NCBI GenBank assembly: GCA_036630325.1
Contig: CP142732.1
Location: forward strand, 682,001-746,000
Length of the DNA: 64,000 nt
Direction: 5' to 3'
From: Vairimorpha necatrix
Taxonomy: Eukaryota
Position 1 is the first letter of the stretch. Each line of letters begins with the position of its first letter. Both the position numbers and the translations under genes were made by a program. The notes under the pieces are model-generated. The model made no database searches, was not told the DNA's origin, and saw only the letters and a list, made by a program, of their open reading frames with translations. Positions 17,404 through 63,692 of the stretch are shown here, piece after piece.

Positions 17404-17934
17404 TTATTCCCACCATGTAAGTGGACCAAGTCCCGACTCATTCAAACTCGCCAACATGATTTTATTTTCTTCATCATATTTTATAACTTTAAATTTGATT
17501 TTTTCACCAGTTTTAATAAAAAATCTATTATTTTTATAATTCCAGACCCATGACAATTTTTTATTTTTTTTTTCGTCGTAAATGTAAGTAATTTCAGAAT
17601 TGTCTGGTAAATTTTCTATTGGAACATAAATTTTATCATAAAAAAAGATAGAAATAAATAAACCTGTTTCGTTTTGGAGAAAAACTGTGCCTTCTAAGAT
17701 TTCGTCTCTTAGAAATCTATAAAAAATTATATTAAAATGTATTTTGTATAAAATGTAATCTTCTACACATTTCTTTTCTAATATTTGATAATTGTTTTTA
17801 ATGAATATTCCTAGACCCACTTCTGGTACAAATTTGTTTCTATATTTTAAAGTTAAAATGTTTTGGATAGATTTATCGGTTTTAGAAGAAAAGTAAATTT
17901 TTAAAGAATCTTCGAGTTTTGACTCAACGAACAT
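17404..17934 (-). CDS. RPC25: RNA polymerase III subunit C25 (RPC8)
   Basis: KY.NK.VPEVGL.I and C-terminal ESGLGPLTWWE motifs. Confidence 0.88.
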   Translation of the reverse strand: MFVESKLEDSLKIYFSSKTDKSIQNILTLKYRNKFVPEVGLGIFIKNNYQILEKKCVEDYILYKIHFNIIFYRFLRDEILEGTVFLQNETGLFISIFFYDKIYVPIENLPDNSEITYIYDEKKNKKLSWVWNYKNNRFFIKTGEKIKFKVIKYDEENKIMLASLNESGLGPLTWWE

Positions 17935-32102: not shown

Positions 32103-33014
32103 TTAATTAATCATTTTTAATTTTTCTAGTAGTCTTAACTTTCGTCTAATAGCATTCAAAAATCTATCATAATTACTAAACATTTTTTGCAAATTTATAG
32201 ACATATTAGTCAAGGCTATTTTCATGTCATATGAATCATCTACTTTTTTAATATAATTTTCTATAATCGATTCATACAAATTTATAAGCCTACCACATAG
32301 ATTAAATTCATTAAATAAATAAGGAAATCTTGTAATTAATAACTGAAAACGATGTTTTAGTGAATTTTTATGATAATTGTAATGCAAGTGTTTAGGCGCG
32401 AAAGCATAGAAATAATCCATAGCTTCAACTATCTGATCAACACTTTCAATTATTGATTTCTTACTATCTTCGTGTATTGTAGAATTTAGAATCTTTGTTC
32501 CTATACTTGGTAAGTCGATATTCAATATATCTTTAAATACTCTAATCCATTGATTAGTTACATAATAATTTGATTTGTAAAATATATAATCTAATTGAGA
32601 TGGAAATTTACATTTAAATATCGGCTCTTTTACGTTCATTTTATCATTTTTCCACTGATCAATCTGATCTTTAAAATTTTTTACATCAGAATGAAAAGTT
32701 TTTTCAAGTGTACTGTTCACGGGCTTGAGATACACATTTTTCATTAGTTTAATAAAACTCAATACTACCTCATCGAACGAAACTTCCTGCGGATGATTAT
32801 TAGAAATGGTGGAAGAATTTTTTTTATAATGAAAGGGTCGGCCACGTTTACATCCAGAAGTTTTAGCGGAGCGTAATATTTGATAAAGTATACTAGAATT
32901 TTTTATTTGATCAACTTCAATCTTTTCCTGTTGGTTTGTCCAACCTCTCCATGGAATAAAGTCGACATTATCAGCGATATTTGAGCAAAATATTAATGAA
33001 AAAAACAGAAACAT
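32103..33014 (-). CDS. Hypothetical secreted protein
   Basis: Long ORF; the ATG after CCC gives a signal-peptide-like MFLFFSLIFCS start. Confidence 0.65.
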   Translation of the reverse strand: MFLFFSLIFCSNIADNVDFIPWRGWTNQQEKIEVDQIKNSSILYQILRSAKTSGCKRGRPFHYKKNSSTISNNHPQEVSFDEVVLSFIKLMKNVYLKPVNSTLEKTFHSDVKNFKDQIDQWKNDKMNVKEPIFKCKFPSQLDYIFYKSNYYVTNQWIRVFKDILNIDLPSIGTKILNSTIHEDSKKSIIESVDQIVEAMDYFYAFAPKHLHYNYHKNSLKHRFQLLITRFPYLFNEFNLCGRLINLYESIIENYIKKVDDSYDMKIALTNMSINLQKMFSNYDRFLNAIRRKLRLLEKLKMIN

Positions 33015-34641
33015 TGAAGGGATAAAACGGCCGATTATTATAAACATGTAATGAATTAATCAAATATCTAGTTTTAAACATACATAAAGTTAATCAGGAA
33101 TAAAAAATGCAAAATTGTCTATTGATTTTCTTAAAAAACACAAAAAAATGATTTCTTTGAACTCTACAAGTTATTTTAACAATAGAAAAATCGTTACGTG
33201 CTAAAATTAACAATTTATAATATATTCATCTTTAATGTTTAATATTACTCAATCAACCCTGATATAAAACCTACGTCACATTAAAAGTTACCAAATAAAA
33301 TTTTTACTTTTATAAATATTTAATTTAAGTTCATTGATTAATTTCTTAAAAAACAATTTATCAATATCAAAAGATTATTTAAATAGTGTATTCGAAATTT
33401 AATTTGTTATATGACGTATTGCAATAATTTAATGTTAAAATTTTTTTGAATTTAAAAAGCCGTATATATTATCAATTAATCAATAATAAAGAATTCCTAA
33501 TTAATATTTCATAAATCTCTTTAATAAAGCAATATTATATGTAGTACAGACCATAATAATATAATTAGGCGACACATAGCTTAAATAAACTACCCAAAAA
33601 ATATACAGAAATAAAAGTAGGTACAACGATAAAGATTTACTAAGAAATAATATTGCGCAATAGACATATATGTAATTGAAAAAAGCAAATCATAATAGTG
33701 AAGATGAATTCAACATTGTCTTATAACTTACAACATAATAATGAGAAGATAGAAAATTTTAAAAATTTACAAGAATCTGTTTAATGCATGGATGAAAGAC
33801 ACAATTATCTTCAACTTATGTATGAGACTTCATAGAAACTAAATATAATTATAAACAGGTGGTATTTATATGAATGGTCAATATGAAATGTACGAAAATA
33901 ATTCCACTATGCAAACAAAAAACATTTATCTTGAATACACAAGAAAAGAATGTGAAATTTGATATATTGTAAGTAAACACTGTGCCTAAGGATGATTATC
34001 ATAACCTAATTATACCTAAACAATTCAATATTTTGCTCAATGAAATCCATAAATTTCATAACATTTGTTCACTTTCAATAAAATGTTACATTCATTTGTG
34101 TAGCTTGTCACCAATAAACTTATTGTCAATATTAAAAATAGACTATTAACACATATAAATGATATCGTTGACACAGTGCAACAAATACTACAACAGAACA
34201 TTAAAGTTAAAAGTTGCTTGTATTTTATAAAAATCGAATCGTGTTTTATTGCGAAAGTGCATAAGAATGAACTCAAGTCGCAAACAATACCATGAAAATA
34301 TAACGACAGGACTGTTGTAATATTTACTTAACCTATAAGCATTTTTAGCATAATTTAACATATAATCGAATATTTTGATGTAACTTTGACATCAAATATT
34401 TAATAATTAGGCCGTCTATATCGAATTTTACTTAGCTTTCTAATTGTTAAGTTTGAACTCGTAAATTGTGTACAAGCCTAAAAATGATAGCATTGAACCA
34501 ACAGTCCATTTTAAATTTATTGTTTACTAGACATTTACATTGTTAATAAAATACTTAGAAAACTTTCCTAGTCTGATGTAGTAAAGATTTCATGGAATGT
34601 AAACAACAAGACAGCTGAAACTTATAATAAAAAAATTAAAT

Positions 34642-34754
34642 AAAAAACTGGGACTACTCCCAGTGTTAACTCTCAAAATAAACATGCCGTCCTTGCGCAG
34701 GGGTCATGCTAATCTTCTCAGTGTTTTAAAGAAAATATGATGCCAATAGCATAC
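34642..34754 (-). ncRNA. U6: U6 spliceosomal snRNA
   Basis: Minus strand reads ACTGAGAAGATTAGCATGACCCCTGCGCAAGGACGGCA, matching the U6 core (AGC triad, ISL), and ends in a T6 Pol III terminator; 5' end approximate. Confidence 0.92.
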
Positions 34755-35127
34755 CCCTAAAAAAAATTAGAAATTTATATGAAAAAATTATTTGATTTTT
34801 TGACCCCTTGAAAAATAAAAACAAAAATAAAAAAAGTACAAATAATGTCTTAAAAATGCGTAAATGTCTTATAATTCGATTTTATATATATTTTTGACTA
34901 TTTTTGGGCACTATAAAATAATATACAAAGCATTATAAATTATTTGTAAAATAATAAGTGATTTGAACTTAAAATAGAATAAAAGTTATTAAGTCTCCTT
35001 TATATATCTCATTGCTTTCTATTGGTAAAAAAATTGATCATTTTGTGGTTTGATTGCTAATTAACAAATTTTACTGGTCCAAAATCTTTATAAGTTTTAT
35101 AAAGAAAACCAAATCAAAACCAGAAAT

Positions 35128-35976
35128 ATGAAACCAAACTATCTTCAATTAGAAGAGTTTTTATTTAACTTGAAACAAAAAATAAATCCAGATCTACAAG
35201 TAAATGAAATAAAATTAGATGATTCAAATATAACTGTAAAATTTTACAACATCCAAGATATTCAATACATGCCTTTGGCAATATTAGAAGATCTTTTGTG
35301 GATGCACATGAATATTCAGAAAAGCGAAACAATTAGAGATTTTATTAGAGATATGATGAATATTTACAAGATCATGGAAGTAGATAAAGACAATAATCCG
35401 GTAGAAATAGAACTTTGTGGGCTTGACCACTTGAATGGAAACATTTTCGCACTTATCGAAAAAAAATATTGCGAATTGATGAATTCGGAAGATTCGTCTA
35501 TGTTTGGTCGCATTGAAATGTCTAATATTACAGATAAAGACAAGATGGAAAAAACCAATGTAGATTACGAATATCCATTTGATAAATCCTTTGTTCAGCA
35601 AGATTTTAAAGAAATAATGAGCAATATTTATAAATCCAATGATTTTATAGAACCAACGAATGTAGAAGAAAATCTCTACAATCCATTTAAGAAAAATCTC
35701 GGCAGAGGAAGAAGTAGGACGAAACAAGTAAATATTAAAGATAGACCGTTTATTTGTGAATATCCTGATTGTAAAAGAGCTTTTAAAAGGTATGAGCATT
35801 TGAAGCGACACAATAAGATGCACACAGGCGAGAGGCCTTACAAGTGCAAATTCCCAGGATGTATGAAAGCCTTTTCTAGAAGTGACAATCTGTCACAACA
35901 TTACAAAATTCACAACGTGCCATCAAAGTCACAAAGTTTGACATTTAGAAATTATTACGAGATGAGCAAAGAGTAA
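35128..35976 (+). CDS. C2H2 zinc-finger transcription factor (two fingers)
   Basis: CEYPDC...H...H, TGERP linker, CKFPGC...FSRSDNL.QH...H. Confidence 0.9.
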
Positions 35977-36221
35977 AATAAATGCTATGTGTTTAGAAAA
36001 GGCTTTTCTTTGCATTTTTTTATTATAATTATGTTTTTATAAATTTAGTCAAAAAAATATCTTAAACACAAATGCTTTTCTTATTTTTTAATATTTTTTG
36101 CTTTTTCAATATAAAATAAAATAATAAGCACATATTCGACTTTCTATTTGAAGGTCGAATGATGAAGTGTGAAGACTTTTGTTCTTCTTTTTACCTTTTA
36201 AAATTTACACCATAAATTTAT

Positions 36222-39074: not shown

Positions 39075-39496
39075 TAACAGTCAATAAGGAGCATGGAAAC
39101 AAGCCGAAGACCACGTGGATAGATGTAAAGAAAGCCTACGACTCCGTAGACCATTCTTATCTATTAACGTGTATTTGCAAGTTAAATCTCCCCCCAATGG
39201 ATAAGAAAATTCTTATTAGCCAACGTTAAAAGGGGGCATATTGAGATAAAATCAGGATCGGGAACGATACTGGATAAAAAGATTAAAAGAGGCATACTAC
39301 AAGGGGATTCCTTGTCGCCACTTTTGTTTGTACTATGTATGGCCCGTTGAGCAGGAAACTGAATTCAACTTGCTCAAAAGTAAGATTACAGACTCACGAA
39401 AGTGTTTATGTAACAAAACATCTTCTATTTGTTGATTATCTTAATCTCCTCGCAGAGAAAGATGTCGTTTTAAAACTGATGAATGAGGAAAATAAG

Positions 39497-41104
39497 GGTG
39501 ACCGGAATTTTCGTCCCGGTGGTAGGGGTTAAAAAAATAAAAAAATAAAAAATCTCGGTTTTTTATTTTTTTAACCCCTACCACCGGGACGAAAATTCCG
39601 AAAAAAAAAATAAAAATAAAACTTTAATATTTCAATAATTTCAAAGACAAAATCTAAACCAACCCCTTCATCCACAGTTTTGTTTAAAAAATTAGCTAGC
39701 CGAATCTCTTTTTCAATGTATTTTTGTTTACGTTCAAAAACATGATTTAAAATTGTTTGTTGGATTATCTTGATTCGCACTATATCTTCTTCATCCTTTA
39801 ACTTGCTCACTAATAGATAAAAACTGTATCGACTTGTACCAAATGTGTTTTTAAAGGTATTATGCCAACCTTCAATCGCATTATTAGTTCTTGGAAAATC
39901 TATATCCATTTTATTTCTCGTATGCCACAAATTCGGCGGAAAACGACATCCTAAATCAATATAATTTGTAAAGAAATAGGCATATAACTCAGTCAAGCAT
40001 TCAGGGAAATTTCTGTCTTGTTTTAATTCCAAAAAAGTAGACAATATTTCGTCATATTCAACATATGCAAGTGCCGTAAGAGACAAAACAAATTTTTTCA
40101 CCATAGGTGAACATGTGTAAACAGAAGAAAGTCCTGAACTTTTAACACGTCTATCAATAGCCTGGGCTAAGTGAAAAAGACAACCCGAAATTTGACAATC
40201 CGAGAAAATTATTGAAAATGCTCTTATCGCAGCATACTCAAAATCGGGTTTTATCAACCTTGGGTTGAGCTCTGGAAACCTTCTCTTTAACAATTGAAAC
40301 AAAAAACAATAGGTTTCAAAACTTTTATCTTTTAAAATTGCAAATATAATCGGAAATACATGCGCTTCACGGATAAAACTAATTGTGTAAAGTTGATAAT
40401 ATGGAATTGGAACCACCGTAAAGGTCCCATCCATCGCCCACATGTCATATAGAGCCAGTTTTCCCATAGCTGAATCTGTATAAAAAACTATTATACTGTC
40501 ATTGGGTTTATCACTCCCGCAATTTTCAGGCCCATATCGATACCATTGTTCGCCTGTATGACTGATTAATTAATCAGCACATAAACCCAATGTTTGGTTG
40601 GCGTATGGTTTTGGATTTAAGAAATTTAGCCTAGCTTTCCTTAATATCCTCGCAATAGGCTCAATAGGGCCTATTGCGGCGATTGTTTCTTCACCAGCTC
40701 TTCTTAAGGAAGAAAAAAATGTTTCTAGAAGAATCTTTGCCAGAGATAATTTCCCGTTTCATTTTATCTATTTTATTCTTCCTACAGACCTGTTCAGGAT
40801 TTGGTTCATGATTATGAGGCGAAGAAATAATAAAGGATTCGAGATTATTGACGTAAACAATACTACTAATGGCCTTGGCATTACAGCTTCGTACAATGCA
40901 GCGCCACTTTATAGTAGTATTGTTGATTCTTTTTTTCTCGTAAATATATAGATTTTCATCTATTATTTGGTCCATATTTCTTTTGCTTTTAATGATCCTT
41001 TTTGTCCCGGTCATAGGGGTAAAAAATAAAAAAAGAAAAAAGTTCGTTTTTTTTATTTTTTAATTTTTTTAACCCCTATGACCGGGACGAAAAGACCGGG
41101 TACC
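39497..41104 (-). mobile_element. Mutator-like (MULE) DNA transposon
   Basis: 9-bp TSD GAAAATAAG at 39488-39496 and 41105-41113; imperfect TIRs GGTGACCGGAATTTTCGTCCCGG / GGTACCCGGTCTTTTCGTCCCGG. Confidence 0.92.
39571..41014 (-). pseudogene. MULE transposase (FLYWCH-like zinc finger plus DDE), disrupted
   Basis: WRC...C.A...HNH in 40691-41014; DGTF, DFE, GCLFH and TNNAIEGWH in 39571-40467. Confidence 0.88.
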
Positions 41105-42861: not shown

Positions 42862-45800
42862 TGTGATATATTTGTATAATTTCTATCCCCATTATGATAA
42901 ATAAAGACATGGGGGCGATACCGAATCGTCAGTTTACAAGTGTGGACTGTGGTCTAGAGGCCAAAAAGTTAATAAAGGAAGTTAGAAGAATAATGTATAG
43001 GTTGGAGATGGAGGAAGTAGAAATCAGTTTGTGGAAGCAGAGAATATTTATGGAAGGAAGTGAAGAAATAAAAAATTTCATGGTAGAAAGAATTAGTAAA
43101 GAGGACGAATATTATAAAATAATTGAGAAATTAGAGGAGGAAATATGTAGAGAAGAAAGAACTAAAAAAGAAGAAGAAAATAGGAGAGAACTTATGGAGG
43201 TTATAGCTGAGAATGTTAGAGAAACTGTGAGAAAAGAAATTCAAGAGAAAGATTTAGTTTTAAGGAGTACAGTACAAGAAATAAGAAATAATAGGAATTG
43301 TTTTAATTGTGGTAAATTTGGCCATATGGCTAGGAACTGCTATTTAGGAAGGAACAATAATCAGAAAAATAATAAAAAGTTTAATAAGTACTTAAATTTA
43401 GACGAAAACCAAAGTTGTAGTAGCAGTAATGATAATAAAGAATATAAACCAAGTGGAAAGACAAAACGAGTTAAGTTAAAGGAATGTAATAATAGTGATA
43501 GAAGACATAAAGAAAGAATATATGCGAGCAATAAAGAGACGAAAAGAAGATTACTGAAGAGGGAATTTACGTTGGAAGATCTCAAAGCGGAATATGAAGA
43601 AGTTTTTAAACAAGGAGATGAGGTTATAAGTTATTGTACATTAGAGAAGTGTAAGATAGATACTCCAGAGGGTAAGAAGATAGTCAGAAAGGGACAGACG
43701 ATCCCACAGGCTTTGATCAAACAGACTGAGGAATATATTAATGATTTAGAAAATAGAAAAATTATAAGAAGATCGTCTTCGGAATGGCGAAACCCAATAA
43801 TAGCGATACTTAAACCAAGTGGTGAAGTAAGAGTAGTTAGTAATTTTATAGGGTTGAATGATTTAGTCGAGAAAGACCCGTATGAGCTAACGAATATGAG
43901 AGAAATAATAAGAGCTACGCAAGGGTCGATAATATTTACTGTTGTTGATTGCAAAGAAGGATTTTACCATTTTGAAATCGAAGAAAAAGATAAACATAAG
44001 ACGGCGTTTGAATTTAATAAAAAAGTTTACGAATGGAATAGTATGGTGATGGGATACAAAAACTCCCCACAGATACTACAGAGAACGATGAATATGATTT
44101 TTGAAGATTTGCGAGGAAATGGTGTTGAGGTATACATGGACGATATAGTAATACATGCCAACAATAAATGTAAACACGATGAATTAGTAATAGAGGTTAT
44201 AGAAAGAATTAAGAGAAATAAAATGAAATTAAATATTGGGAAAATACAGTTTAGACAAGCGGAAGTAAAATTATTAGGTGTGACGCTGAATGGAATAGAC
44301 ATGACGGCCGACGAAATAAAGAAAAATGAAGCCTTGGAGTATCCGGATCCAAAAACTTTGACGGAATTGAGGAGGTTTCTAGGATTGACTGGGTGGTTCA
44401 GACCATTTATAAAAGATTATGCCGGGCTGACGTTGAAAATGACAGATAGTTTGAAGAAAAATGGCAATTCGTGGAAATTTACGGAAGAGATGAAAGAGGA
44501 ATTTACTAAAATGAAAAATGTTTTAAGAAATATGGGAAGACTAAGATTACCGGACTATAATAAGGAGTTCATACTAAGAACAGACGCTAGCAATTTGAGA
44601 TTGGGTGCGGTGTTACTTCAGAAGAATGAGAATGGGGAATGGGTTGCTATACAATGGGCATCTAAAAAGCTAACACCTACCGAAATAAGATATGGAATAT
44701 CAGAAAAGGAAATGCTTGCGATATATTGGGGCATTGATAAATTTAAATACGAGTTAAGAGGTAGGAAATTCAAGATAGAAACGGATCACAAAGCACTGGT
44801 GGAGATAAGAAATAAACCGTTTTTTTAATAATAACAGAATAAATCGCTTAATCGAGAAGATACAGGAATATGATTTTATCGTTGAATATAAAAAACCTGA
44901 TGAGATGGTGGTAGCAGATGCGTTGAGTCGAATAAATATGGAAGAGGATATTAAAGAAATGAAAAATAAAGAGCGAACAATCAAGCAAACAGAAGGTAAA
45001 TGGAAAGCACATGTTTCTTCCGAGAATGGAAAGCAATATTGGCAATTTGACTCAGGACGTAAAGTTGAAATACCACCTGAGAATATAAGGAGACAATTAA
45101 TCCAAGAATATCATGAAAAAGTAGGCCACAGATGCATGACAAGTGTTTATTATGCAATGAGAGAAGAATACTATTGGCCAGGAGTAAAGAAAGAAATAAA
45201 CGAGGTTATAAAACAGTGTCAGAAATGTCAGATATATAACAGGAAAAATATGGGTGGTTGTGAATTTGTAGATACGTCGAGATACATAGAGAAGGTTGCA
45301 TTAGATTTGATAGACTTTAGAAATTAGAAGAAATATGTTTTAGTTGCTATCGATTATTTTACACGTAGAGTATGGGGAGTAGTTATAAATAACAAGTCAA
45401 GTAATAATGTTGTTGGATTTTTGAAAAGATTATGTGAGCAAGGGAAGAAACCAGAAGAAATTATTACAGATAACGGAAAAGAGTTTATTACGTGGAATTT
45501 AGAAAATTTTGTAGAGATCTCGATATAATACACCGACAAGTAAGTATAGAAGCGCATAGAAGTAACGGAAGAGTAGAGCGTGTTATAGGAACTTTGAGAG
45601 AAAGTATTTTAAAGTCGGATGCGAAAACTTTTGAAGGTAAAGTATATAAAAGTATCGATGTATATAATCAGAGCTATCATACGGGAATAAAATGTACACC
45701 ATTAGAAGCGACTGAAGATAAAACTGGAGACGTAATGCTTGAAAATAGCCCTTTAGGGAAATATTGTAATAGGTTTGGAAAAGGAAAGATCGAAAAATTT

Positions 45801-49191: not shown

Positions 49192-49673
49192 ATGAATTTT
49201 TTTTCTATTCTATTTCATAAAGTTCTAAAATTAAAAAATGAAAAAGTAAATGAAACAAACCCAGTACTCGATTGGGCCAAACAAGATAATATAATTACTG
49301 TTGAAGAGTCCAGAATAACTTTTTATAAGAGGCTTCAATATGGTATATATTCAAACGCATTCAAGCCATTATTACCAGTCAATAGCAAAGACAATGATAG
49401 TCGAAACAATAAGAAAAAAGACAATCAATCTTCGGATTTACCGATAAATGTACAAAGCAATGAATGCAATGATTTCCCAGTGGATCTACGTTGAAATCTA
49501 AAAGTATCCTGATGCAAAAGCTTTTGTCATTTTCGCGTCGTTGTAATTCATTCTTGGAAAAATATAATCTTATCTTGATCATATTTCTTTATTTTTTGTT
49601 TATTTTTGGAATTGGTTTTTATTCTGGAAAATTAGTGCAATTTTTCCTAAAACGAACAAACAATGAAGATTAA
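49192..49673 (+). pseudogene. Tandem-family member 1 (signal-peptide-like N-terminus, C-terminal TM), frameshifted near 49470
   Basis: CCCT-ATG start; the second ORF carries the LFIFGIGFY TM segment similar to 52459-52836. Confidence 0.6.
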
Positions 49674-52458: not shown

Positions 52459-52836
52459 ATGAATCTTTCATATCTACTATTTCAAAGCGTTTCAGCAATA
52501 AGATCCGAAGAAGAAAATAATACCAACCCATTTATATATCGAATTAAACAAGAAAGTAATAAATCTCTTGAAAAGTCCGATTTATTATGTGAGGTATGTA
52601 ATTCTACTGTATCAACCAATGTCCGAGACAGAGAGAATAAAATTTATACAATTAAGAATGACAGTGAGCATTTATCTACATCGAATTTTAAAACTAAGTC
52701 AATACAAATATTTTTGAAAATCAAACATAGTGTTTCTTCGTTTTGCGATGAAAATTGTGCAAGATTTTTTTATGCTTTCTGTTTGTTTCTGTTCGGGATT
52801 GGATTTTTTTGGGGCTTGAATCGACCTCTTTACTAG
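52459..52836 (+). CDS. Tandem-family member 3
   Basis: CCCCC-ATG, MNLSYLLFQSVSAIRSEEENN, C-terminal TM helix. Confidence 0.75.
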   Translation: MNLSYLLFQSVSAIRSEEENNTNPFIYRIKQESNKSLEKSDLLCEVCNSTVSTNVRDRENKIYTIKNDSEHLSTSNFKTKSIQIFLKIKHSVSSFCDENCARFFYAFCLFLFGIGFFWGLNRPLY

Positions 52837-53517
52837 ACCATTGTAATAAAAACTCCAATAGTTATAATCTACAGTTTATAATTTTAAACAAACTCATTTT
52901 ATATTACAAGAACACAAATTTTCAAAACATAATTAGACTTTGTTCATTTTAATCATTAAAATTATAAAAATTTTTACAAAAACAAAAATTATGTTTGGGT
53001 GATCAGTAAATTTTTTATTTAATACAAATGTATGTGCAAACATGACTCTTCTTGTGTTAGTAGCATCTAAACTGTTTATATGCCATTTATTAAATATTAA
53101 ATAGAGCCTGCGGCTGTTGTTAGTTTAAAATTTTTAGGTAATAATAATAACAAAAAATTAAAAAGTAACACGTAAATTTACAAAATTGACATAAACACTG
53201 CAATTTACTATTTTAAATGCTTGTATCAAAACAAACGTAAATTTAGTGCAATAATTGTACTAACATGACTCAGCAGTTTGAGAGAATATACTATATAGAT
53301 CAGTAAAAATACCAAGAGACGTTATGACACCTGAATCTGCTACATTTCAATTATTTTCAAAAAATACTTACATTATTATGTTAATTCTAAAGTTGTCAGT
53401 GGATGGATATATAAATGACTAGAAAATAAATTTGTCATGTGTTACTACATTTAAATATATTTTCATTAAAGAAAAATGATATCTGATTTATTTAAATTTT
53501 TAAAAAAAATTGGCCCC

Positions 53518-54000
53518 ATGGATTTTTTACATTTATTAGTTCAAACTATTTCAACAACAAAGCACAAAGAAGACACAAATCTTTTAGAGAATTCGCTTCA
53601 AGATGAACATTTCGACGTGATAGCTATCGATTCCCACAAAATAAATTTTAATATGGATCATCAAGAGGGGATTTTCGAAAGGTCTAGAAAACTGAATGAT
53701 TCTGTATATGATTCAAAATTGCACATGTCTTCTCAGAAAATAGTAAATGAAGGCGCCAGTACTTCCGGAAATTCTTTATTATATACAACAATCAGTGTGG
53801 AAAATGACGAAGAGGATCATAGTGAACTTGTTAAGTTAGAAAAAGAAAAAAAATCCCTAAAATTACCAGAAACTTATTGGGAACATATACGTTTTGCCTG
53901 CGCAAGTCTCGGCAAAAGAGAAAAGATATATTCTGTTGTTACAATAATTATAACAACTATTGCACTTATTTCAGTCGTAATTTGGGTTTCTTTTTTTTAA
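53518..54000 (+). CDS. Tandem-family member 4
   Basis: CCCC-ATG, MDFLHLLVQTISTTKHKEDTN; shares NxSxYxxKxHMSS with member 2; C-terminal TM. Confidence 0.75.
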   Translation: MDFLHLLVQTISTTKHKEDTNLLENSLQDEHFDVIAIDSHKINFNMDHQEGIFERSRKLNDSVYDSKLHMSSQKIVNEGASTSGNSLLYTTISVENDEEDHSELVKLEKEKKSLKLPETYWEHIRFACASLGKREKIYSVVTIIITTIALISVVIWVSFF

Positions 54001-55394: not shown

Positions 55395-55685
55395 ATGAAT
55401 TTGCTATACCTTCTTATTCAATTTATACAAACAACAGGTTGGAATGAACATAACAATGGCGATGATATATCTCGGAGAAATAATTCTAATAATGAACAAG
55501 TGGAAGAAAAGAAAAAGTGGCGCGCTTTAACATTTAGAGAAGACAAAATATATAGAAGAAAAGAGCCTCTTATAGATGGCAATATTTTCTTTCAACTTTT
55601 TTGGTTACCATGTTTGTTTGTTGTCTTTTATGCGGGGCTCTTTGTGGCGTCAATTGGTTTTTATTATATTTTTTTCAATAAATGA
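55395..55685 (+). CDS. Tandem-family member 5
   Basis: CCCC-ATG, MNLLYLLIQFIQTT, C-terminal TM helix. Confidence 0.7.
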   Translation: MNLLYLLIQFIQTTGWNEHNNGDDISRRNNSNNEQVEEKKKWRALTFREDKIYRRKEPLIDGNIFFQLFWLPCLFVVFYAGLFVASIGFYYIFFNK

Positions 55686-55772: not shown

Positions 55773-56556
55773 GTAGGTGCCCTTAGCCCAGTGATAGAAG
55801 GCGAAGCTTTAAATGAGCAATGGCTGGGTTCGATCCTTAGGGGCAAAAAAATTGTTTCTACTTTCTATGATGCAGTTGGAACAACTCAGATGATGAAAAT
55901 GTCCACGATAATCATTAAGTTGATTCAATGAAACTTGTGTGTGTCCAGCCACACGGGGATTAGCATCTAGTGTAGAAACGCACCTCAAAGTCAAAAAGCA
56001 GTATCACACTTTGGTGACTTAATAACACATAAAAGTATCTAATGGGTACGGCCTAGTTGGATCCCATGGCTGGTGCACTATAGAGTGGGATTCTAGAGCT
56101 AACTAAGAGACTAGACGATGTAGGGCAATAGAAGGTCTCATGATCTTTATCCTACAAGATTCTGTAACACGGGGCCGAAACTAGTGAAAGACTGCTGGTC
56201 AACGCAGCCCAATAAAAAGTTGATGGTGATGTGGTCGTGCAAGGAGCCGTGTGTGCAATACAGATGATTGTAGGGACCTTTGAGTCAGTACGACTATGTT
56301 TCCCCTCGGGTTATAGATAACCATGCCCGTTAAGTATATCCGCTGTGAGGTCACTCTGGACGCGATTTGAGGTATAAATGGAAAGTGTTCTCCCCGAGTC
56401 AAAGTCCAATGGATACGGCGGAGCTTGCTGCACCGGCAAGTTGTATGGAGGGAGTTTTAGTGAGAAGAATCCCGCAGTACCAGTTGGATGAGAATTCCAC
56501 CCAAAGTCTGGTCCCTATGTAGGTTTCTCCCTGCCTCTTACTTGCAAGAAAAAAAA
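55773..56556 (+). mobile_element. tRNA-derived SINE-like retroposon (~780 bp)
   Basis: 13-bp TSD AATATAAATACAG at 55760-55772 and 56557-56569; tRNA-like head with A box TAGCCCAGTGA and B box GGTTCGATCC; A-tail; no convincing ORF. Confidence 0.8.
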
Positions 56557-60617: not shown

Positions 60618-63600
60618 TGTAGGGTTTAGAACCCTTAATAAATAAATGGTTAACATGGCGAACACAAGGATGAACAGGGAAACAAGAGAGTCCCGTAGTC
60701 AAGAGGCTAGAACATTAGAGAAAGAGGCAATTAGGATAGATAAGAGACTAAAGTTAATATTGAAAGTTGAGAAAGTTGAGTGGAAAGATGTTATGGATTT
60801 GGCATCTGCGAACTTGCAGGATTATATTTTTGAAAATTTTTGTGACGGAAGGAGCAGTTGGGAGGAAATTTATAAAGGCTTACAAAAAGGAGCAGAATTT
60901 GAGAGAGAGTCAGAAGAAAGACAAGAAATGATTAAAGAGATTATGGATAAAGTGTTGAAAGAGTTTAGGGAAGAAAGAAAAGAAAATCTTAGGATGTATA
61001 GGAAAAGAAGAGAAATCAGAGAAACTACAAAATGTTTTATATGTAAGAAAGAAGGGCATTACGCTAGAGAATGTCATGAAAGTGTAGCTGGTAGGGAAAA
61101 ATATAAAATTAAAAAGGAACAAGTTTTACAGAAAGAACCAATTATCAACAATGAAGGGAAAAGATGTAAAACAGTAAATAAGTTAGAAAATTTAATTGAA
61201 AAGTATCCGGAAGTTTTTAAAGAATCAGAAGAAAAGATAAAATATCTCACAGGAGAGAAGTGTCCAATAAATACTAAGCAAGGTGAAAAGGTTGTGAAAA
61301 GAGGGCAGAATGTGCCATACTACCTTAGGGTGAAATTTGAGGAGTACTTGAATAAGTTGGAAAATAGAGGGGTTATAAGACGTTCCAAAAGTGAGTGGAG
61401 GAGTCCAATAAGAGCACTTGAAAAACCAAATGGGGACGTAAGATTGGTAAGCAATTTGATGGCGTTAAACGATTTGGTTGACAAGGACCCGTACTCACTA
61501 CCGTTAATTAAGGATATTATGAGAGCCACACAGGGGTCAAAAGTATTTACGGTTATCGACTTAAAAGAAGGGTTTTATCATATTGAGATTGAGGAGCACC
61601 ATAAGCACAAAACAGCATTTGAAGTGAATGGTCGAGTATACGAATGGAATAGTATGGTTATGGGGTTTAAGAATTCGCCTCATATAATGCAGAGAGTAAT
61701 GAACAGAGTTTTAGATGAATTCAGAGGTAAAGGCGTGGAAGTATATATGGATGATATAGTTATTCATGGTAAAGACGTAAGAGTGCATGACGAGTTACTA
61801 GAGAGGGTAATTAAAAAGTTTAAAGAGTGTGGGTTGAGAATAAACCAAACAAAGATACAATACAAAAAAGATGAGGTGATGTTGCTGGGAGTAACAATTA
61901 ATGGGGAGGTCATGGGACCGAATGAGATTAAAAAGCAGGAGACATTGGAATATAGAAAACCTGAGAATGTTAGAGAGTTAAGAAGATTTTTAGGACTAAC
62001 TGGTTGGTTTAGAGACTTTATTCCCAACTATGCGTATAGAACAGTAAGGCTTACTGAGGCTTTAAAGAAAGATGTTAAGTGGAATTGGACGGAGGATATG
62101 GAAAGAGCTTTTGAGGATATGAAGCAAGGCTTGAGAGATATGAAAAAGTTGAAGATTCCGGACGGAAAAAAGCTATTTAGAGTAAGAACTGATGCGTGTG
62201 ATACGGGGATCGGAGCAATTCTATTACAAGAAAATAAAGAGGGTGAGTGGATTCCGATACAATGGGCATCGAAAATGTTGACTCCTACCGAGCGAAGATA
62301 TACGATAAGTGAGAAGGAGATGTTGGCGGTGTTTTTTGGAATAAAGAAGTTTGAAAGTGATTTGAGAGGAAGGAAATTTCATTTGATGACGGATCATAAA
62401 GCATTAGCAGAGATCAGAAATAAGCCATACTTCAATAATAACAGAATAAACAGATGGGTAGAACAGATACAAGAGTTTGACTTTACAATAGAGTATGTGA
62501 AAGGGGAGTTGATGACAGATGCAGATGCGTTAAGTAGGCAGTATGATCAGGTAGAAGTTTCGGATGAACAAAAAGAAAAGGACAACAAGAGAAAAGAAGT
62601 GATCGAAAAACAAATTTTGGGAAAAAAGCAGAAACATATTAAAGAAAAGGACGGTAAACAGTATTGGGAATTTTCCACAGGTGAGGTGAAATAGATATTG
62701 AGCCTAGATAGTAGAGAACATGAAATAACAAGAGTACATGAGGAGTTAAACCATAGAGGTGTCAAAGGCACTTATTATAACATTAAACAAAGATGGTATT
62801 GGCCTGGTATGAAAGATCATATTAATAAGGTAATTAAGAATTGTGAAATATGTGGGATTAACAATAGGAAAAACACAGGAGGATGTGATTTCGTAGTAAC
62901 TAGAAAGAAATTGGAGAAAGTGGCGTTGGATTTAATGGACATAGGTGGAGAGAATAGGTATGTGTTACTGGGTATTGATTACTTTACTAGAAGGTTGTGG
63001 GGTTCGAATTTGAGATGTAAAGAGAGTAGTGAAGTTATAGAGGTATTACAAAAGTGGATAAGGGAAGATGGATTTCCAGAGGAATATGTGACAGACAACG
63101 GAAAAGAGTTTGTAAGTAATAGATTTAAAGAATGGTGTAGTATTAATGATATTAAACATAGGAAAGTGGGCTTAGAAGCTCATAGGAGTAATGGTAGAAT
63201 CGAGAGATGCATCAGAACTATAAGAGAGACATTGATAAAGCAAAATGATGGGAATATTTCTGAAAAGATAGAAAGAGCAATCAAAGGATATAATAATACA
63301 CTACATACAGCAATAAAATGTACGCCGATGGAAGCGTGGAGAGATCAAACTGCTGAAGTTATAATTGAAAATGATGAAAATGGAAAATATGCTGGTCGGT
63401 TCAAGAGAAGACACAGAGAGACATTTACAGTAGGCCAAGAGGTAAGAATCGCTAGGAGAGAAAATTTAGGTACACGTGCGAAAACAGACAAGGGAAGATT
63501 CACGGGACGCGGAAGGATCGTAGCTATAAGTGAAAATGATTCATATATTGTGAGACTACTGGATGGTAAAATTGTTAAAAAGAGGCATTATGATTTGAAA

Positions 63601-63692
63601 GAGATAAGGAAGAGTTGTTTAGAAGATGGAGAGACTACCCGTCTGGAGGGGGGATGTAGGGTTTAGAATCCTTAATAAATAAATGGTTAACA
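60618..63692 (+). mobile_element. Compact Ty3/Gypsy element (3075 bp) with 38-bp LTRs and no protease
   Basis: LTRs at 60618-60655 and 63655-63692 (1 mismatch, TG...CA), TSD TAATA, TGG-starting PBS at 60656, PPT GGAGGGGGGA. Confidence 0.94.
60646..63666 (+). CDS. Single-frame mini-Gag-RT-RNase H-integrase polyprotein with one in-frame TAG at 62692-62694
   Basis: Both ORF pieces are in the same frame; CFICKKEGHYAREC, YMDD, TDAC, HHCC, TDNG and SNGRIER motifs. Confidence 0.88.

Follow-up and report, generated by a model that had tools for sequence, protein, structure and literature searches.

The window analysed here is a stretch of 64,000 bp (64 kb) of the Vairimorpha necatrix genome (contig CP142732.1) with a G+C content of about 24–34%. 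It was found to encode intronless eukaryotic genes for ArgRS, tubulin, the DNA primase small subunit, Rer1 and Rpc25, together with Saf4/Yju2, LSM-domain and Ty3/gypsy-type RT-RNase H ORFs, a MULE transposase and, on the minus strand, a U6 spliceosomal snRNA gene (Table 1). ArgRS identities were 64% with Vairimorpha bombi, 58% with Nosema granulosis, 55% with N. bombycis and 47–50% with Encephalitozoon and Ordospora, which marks the organism as a microsporidian of the Nosematidae. A metagenome scan for relatives, based on an alignment of 18 microsporidian ArgRS sequences, returned at least 561 pattern matches and at least 498 relatives; among the 80 of these relatives that were kept, the best identity was 38–40%, so that no close microsporidian was among them.

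Mobile and repeated elements in the window

Two Ty3/gypsy-type RT-RNase H ORFs were present, one of them with a zinc knuckle, and the second was followed by an ORF of 285 amino acids. Both the G+C content and the GC skew of this region exceeded those found elsewhere in the window. Sub-threshold Rfam matches to families with no relation to one another (miRNA precursors, U12, Y RNA and snR83) were found at 39465–39599 and 40998–41094. These sites were located at the 3′-end of the MULE transposase ORF (39571–40467, minus strand) and 531 bp past its start codon respectively, and most likely represent the ends of a transposon that form hairpins rather than genes for RNA.

Additionally, four small ORFs of 96–174 amino acids lay in a row on the plus strand (49192–49494, 52459–52836, 53476–54000 and 55395–55685). 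Their products share a similar start, in which MN is followed by a hydrophobic run and then by an acidic/Asn-rich stretch, which points to a tandemly arranged family of small proteins that may be secreted. A tRNA-like stretch at about 55776–55845 (plus strand) contained the box-B motif GGGTTCGATCC at 55826–55836 and a partly complementary acceptor. No call was made in this stretch by either ARAGORN or Rfam, and it may represent a repeat of tRNA origin or a tRNA gene in decay.

Identification of the U6 snRNA gene

Analysis of the window with Infernal and Rfam revealed two matches at the gathering threshold, one to tRNA and one to U6 snRNA (RF00026). The U6 match scored 52.8 bits (gathering score 44, E-value 2e-10), and positions 1–105 of the 105-position model aligned to 34752–34642 without being cut off. 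The score was therefore 8.8 bits over the gathering score, which is low because of a deletion at the 5′-end and an additional hairpin at the 3′-end of the gene, the latter a published property of microsporidian U6. When the threshold was relaxed to E ≤ 1, ten Rfam matches were obtained in the 64 kb; the tRNA and U6 were the only two to pass their gathering scores and the other eight were far under theirs.

The ORFs at 32103–33047 (minus strand) and 35128–35976 (plus strand) flank an AT-rich gap of 2.08 kb in which the U6 gene was located; this gap contained no ORF of 60 amino acids or more and no notable repeats. According to the first-pass annotation of this DNA, its reading would be refuted if another, canonical U6 copy were the expressed one; in the 64-kb window, RF00026 matched at 34642–34752 and nowhere else. 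Neither U4 nor U2 was found in the window (Rfam, E ≤ 1). A scan of the window for a U4-like pairing partner returned only the antisense strand of U6 itself and two weak sites at chance level, one inside an ORF (55626) and one on the minus strand (12476), without a stem I partner.

Table 1 Positions of the U6 gene, its elements and selected protein-coding regions in the 64-kb window
Feature	Position	Strand	Basis or remark
U6 spliceosomal snRNA gene	34642–34752	−	Rfam extent; transcript may start a few bases upstream, in GGGG
TATAAA	34774–34779	−	Minus-strand reading; 22–27 nt upstream of the Rfam start
GGGG immediately 5′ of the RNA start (microsporidian GGG-like start signal)	34754–34757	−	Minus-strand reading
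Short 5′ stem-loop, AUGC/GCAU	34740–34752	−	ViennaRNA fold and RF00026 structure line
ACAGAGA box, reading ACUGAGA	34716–34722	−	Minus-strand reading and RF00026 alignment
AGC catalytic triad, unchanged	34708–34710	−	Inside the identical run GAGAAGAUUAGCAUG
Internal stem-loop region, GCGCA loop, two-base bulge	34681–34710	−	ViennaRNA fold and RF00026 alignment
Extra 3′ hairpin, 7 bp, loop GUAG	34647–34664	−	ViennaRNA, −11.0 kcal/mol; insertion relative to RF00026
T6 run, Pol III-type terminator/U tail	34642–34647	−	Minus-strand reading and RF00026 alignment
Saf4/Yju2 splicing-factor gene, 120 aa	36222–36584	+	PF04502, E 1.7e-28, profile positions 19–129 of 332
LSM-domain (Sm/LSm) protein gene, 74 aa	25982–26206	−	PF01423, E 7.8e-13
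Rpc25 (Pol III subunit) gene	17404–17934	−	
Ty3/gypsy region ORFs	42894–44828, 60646–62694, 62809–63666	+	

Core, structure and transcription signals of the U6 gene

The sequence running from two bases 5′ of the box through the internal stem-loop was identical to the RF00026 consensus at 35 of 41 positions. The six differences consisted of a C for U at the base preceding the box, a U for A in the box, a G to A change after the AGC region, an A-C in place of A-U at the bulge and two stem positions. The AGC triad was found at its fixed spacing after the box, in the run GAGAAGAUUAGCAUG, which is identical to the consensus. The first-pass annotation had described this core as well conserved apart from the box, which agreed with the alignment. 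Outside the core, seven consensus positions were deleted between the 5′ hairpin and the box, and approximately 13 bases were inserted near the 3′-end.

Folding of 34672–34712 with ViennaRNA gave a structure of −9.7 kcal/mol with the stem, the GCGCA loop and the two-base bulge of the internal stem-loop. The bulged U of the U6 stem-loop binds a catalytic metal through its phosphate in other species; the bulge found here is A-C, compared to A-U in the consensus. Non-canonical bulge regions have been described in E. cuniculi and other reduced spliceosomes (Hudson 2015).

The additional 3′ hairpin, which is not in the Rfam consensus, ran into the T6 tract. The U6 of microsporidia is longer than that of human or yeast due to additional stems close to the 3′-end, and every ncRNA gene of Encephalitozoon and Nosema, that of U6 among them, has a CCC/GGG motif beside its start site and a TATA-like box upstream (Belkorchia 2017). 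The V. necatrix gene is like the Encephalitozoon and Nosema U6 genes described there in its extra 3′ stem and in its GGG/CCC-type and TATA-like signals; for those U6 genes, the same source describes no A or B box (Belkorchia 2017). The presence of all of these traits (the GGGG with the TATA-like box, the lack of an A or B box and the extra 3′ stem) argues for an orthologous, transcribed U6 as opposed to a decayed copy. Judged by its sequence, the locus at 34642–34752 is a genuine U6 gene of a Nosema-type microsporidian.

The ACUGAGA box

The ACAGA box is among the most conserved RNA motifs in eukaryotes. On the minus strand, 34722 to 34716 read A-C-T-G-A-G-A (TCTCAGT on the plus strand), so that six of the seven letters were identical to ACAGAGA and the third, at 34720, was a U in the RNA. 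As one accepted U6, that of the red alga Cyanidioschyzon merolae, has this variant too, the third letter is compatible with a U6. The alignment with RF00026, which placed the consensus A-C-A-G-A-G-A over the A-C-U-G-A-G-A of the window with posterior marks from 9 to *, led to the same reading, and both agree with the box as it was first annotated. The register of the box is fixed, as the identical run GAGAAGAUUAGCAUG comes next.

We take the U at 34720 to correspond to A43 of human U6 and A49 of yeast U6. No m6A is possible at this position because the base is a U and not an adenine. The nonamer recognised by METTL16 is UACAGAGAA, and by our reckoning it is altered at two positions in the U6 of the window. 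The catalytic triplex is built by the last G and A of the box together with the AGC; as these residues are unchanged, no catalytic cost would be expected from the substitution.

A shift of the register, in which the box would hold an intact ACA and, inserted between it and GAGA, the two bases CU in place of a substitution, was rejected as very improbable: an ACA does occur two bases upstream (…AAACAC…) and an indel relative to the consensus is present 5′ of the box, but this arrangement costs an indel and a substitution against two substitutions, is contradicted by the Infernal posteriors on these columns, would leave an upstream ACA that does not pair with +4A/G, and would alter the spacing of the 5′ splice site-binding triplet to GAGA/AGC, which to our knowledge is fixed in all U6.

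Introns and splicing factors

The introns of E. cuniculi and N. ceranae follow the pattern GTA[AG]GT...TAATT(0-4)AG (Heinz 2012, Fig. S2 legend), and only six introns are predicted in N. ceranae, which are short, lie in ribosomal-protein genes and are conserved in E. cuniculi as well. The U1 of Nosema and Encephalitozoon carries ACUUACC (Belkorchia 2017). The statement of the first-pass annotation that microsporidian 5′ splice sites are typically GTAAGT is in keeping with both the intron pattern and U1. For the intron pattern, the window was scanned directly. This published pattern, run as a regular expression, matched the 64-kb window six times, compared to a mean of 8.73 and a maximum of 16 in 100 shuffles, and none of the six matches was in a coding context. 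A scan of the window with a second intron pattern gave one match, inside a retrotransposon ORF, and neither scan yielded a credible intron. Hexamers analysed with RNAduplex paired in shifting registers, and these energies were not used as evidence.

The presence of the Yju2 and LSM genes in the window indicates that splicing machinery has been retained. The Saf4/Yju2 gene, 1.5 kb from U6, lacked the usual first 18 or so residues and the whole of the C-terminal part; no upstream exon was visible in 35950–36221. The LSM-domain and Rpc25 genes are relevant to U6 biogenesis, and nothing ties either of them to the box variant.

Discussion

The central A of the ACAGA box lies opposite position +4 of the 5′ splice site and is the site of m6A addition by METTL16 (Ishigami 2021; Parker 2023), as the first-pass annotation had it. 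In the current model the central m6A, METTL16 and the intron +4 base are tied together: with a +4A, METTL16 N6-methylates the central A, and with a +4U, for example in S. cerevisiae, the central A carries no methyl group and forms a Watson-Crick pair (Ishigami 2021; Parker 2023). The box was invariant as ACAGA in 240 of 240 species of Saccharomycotina and outgroups (Parker 2023).

We consider it reasonably probable that the gene described here is the working U6 of this Nosematidae microsporidian, in which a fixed A-to-U change facing intron position +4 compensates for a missing m6A. Once U1 had handed over the 5′ splice site, nucleotides 1–3 of the box (ACU) would pair antiparallel with intron positions +6, +5 and +4. 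The U in the third place would form a Watson-Crick A-U pair with a +4A and a G-U wobble with a +4G. As +4 is A or G in the relatives of V. necatrix and U pairs with both, U is a single base that could serve both kinds of intron. This pairing would replace the A-opposite-A contact that is stabilised in other eukaryotes by the m6A made by METTL16, and it would leave the GAGA, the AGC triad and the stem-loop of U6 untouched. The intact core, TATA-like box, GGGG, 3′ stem and U tail support the view that the gene is a working one. We infer that it is expressed, that the pairing takes place in vivo and that the change makes up for the absence of m6A.

The same variant is known from the red alga C. 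merolae, in which the U6 box has changed from ACAGAGA to ACUGAGA (2023 RNA review; for the ACUGA box, this review, Ishigami 2021 and Parker 2023 all cite Stark et al. 2015). C. merolae has 27 GUAAGU introns and lacks both the m6A and METTL16; its ACUGA box has been interpreted as forming a Watson-Crick pair with +4A in place of m6A (Ishigami 2021; the compensatory idea is also found in Parker 2023). The substitution and its position are the same in V. necatrix U6, and C. merolae is intron-poor, with a reduced spliceosome and strict GUAAGU-type 5′ splice sites. This precedent and the GTA[AG]GT introns of the relatives of V. necatrix support a compensatory pairing. As a red alga, C. merolae belongs to a lineage unrelated to V. 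necatrix, a fungus-related parasite, and the change would have arisen by convergence. In addition, C. merolae is without a U1 snRNA, and Nosema and Encephalitozoon have retained one that carries ACUUACC; the change in U6 here therefore cannot be a response to the loss of U1.

S. cerevisiae and the budding yeasts that lack METTL16 offer a second comparison. They are likewise intron-poor, and the central base of the box forms a Watson-Crick pair with +4 in the absence of m6A. In these yeasts, however, it was the introns that changed (+4 from A to U, giving GUAUGU) and U6 stayed ACAGA, whereas here it is U6 that has changed, with +4 still an A or G in the introns of relatives.

The proposal in the first-pass annotation that the central U acts as a Watson-Crick replacement for m6A thus follows a logic that was already in print for C. 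merolae (Ishigami 2021; Parker 2023); the logic is accepted, and it is not new. The compensatory mechanism is the accepted reading of the known C. merolae variant, and the present U6 is probably a second example of it, with no new mechanism. For V. necatrix, this reading is plausible and matches the published precedent. The annotation had also left it undecided whether the variant had been reported before: it has been published for C. merolae, and the literature searched yielded no report of an ACUGAGA or ACUGA U6 in microsporidia. The same literature yielded nothing relevant on METTL16 in connection with microsporidia or Encephalitozoon, and microsporidia are not mentioned in Parker 2023 or Ishigami 2021. 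Rfam has included U6 sequences of Nosema from release 12 onwards (Belkorchia 2017), so that the variant, if it is shared by Nosema, is already public, though apparently undiscussed.

A different explanation for the same gene, which we regard as unlikely, is that it is real and expressed and that the A-to-U change is tolerated and effectively neutral, having been fixed by drift in an organism with a handful of poorly spliced introns, with the extra pair as a by-product. The further departures from the U6 consensus, namely the C before the box, the C in the bulge and the 7-nt deletion, would also be expected from such relaxed constraint, and microsporidia have few introns, with low levels of splicing (Hudson 2015; Grisdale 2013), as in the case of N. 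ceranae with its six predicted ones. Drift would nevertheless have had to arrive at U, alone among the three possible substitutions in pairing with A as well as with G, the published +4 bases, and to do so with the six other box positions and the catalytic core unchanged. The identical substitution in C. merolae, an organism with GUAAGU introns (Parker 2023; Ishigami 2021), also speaks against neutrality. The variant is, on our analysis, probably a functional compensatory change.

It is less likely still that the locus is a decaying or silent extra copy of U6, or an assembly error, and that a functional ACAGAGA U6 lies elsewhere in the genome. In microsporidia, snRNA genes are as a rule present in one copy, and assembly errors do not typically take the form of a lone A-to-T substitution. 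The small excess of the Rfam score over the gathering score, and a copy count that covers the 64-kb window, are compatible with a silent copy; a decaying gene would nonetheless be hard to reconcile with the full-length match to the model and with a core, stem-loop, U tail, TATA-like box and GGGG that are all intact.

A wider claim can be made only tentatively. The ACUGAGA box may have arisen independently in the Nosematidae and in the cyanidialean red algae, as an adaptive, clade-wide answer to the loss of METTL16 and m6A in lineages whose introns kept a purine at +4. C. merolae, which lacks U1, is so far the sole cited case in which U6 itself has changed. If the V. necatrix gene represents a case of independent origin, in a lineage where U1 has been retained, it would strengthen the hard-wired U:A pair as a general alternative to m6A, and if the adaptive, clade-wide reading is true, the change in U6 would be separated from the loss of U1. 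The variant reveals no new mechanism; such an independent case would also enable a cheap comparative test across the many microsporidia that have been sequenced. Were that reading true, the microsporidia, which range from intron-bearing to spliceosome-free, would form a natural series for the co-evolution of U6, METTL16 and the 5′ splice site.
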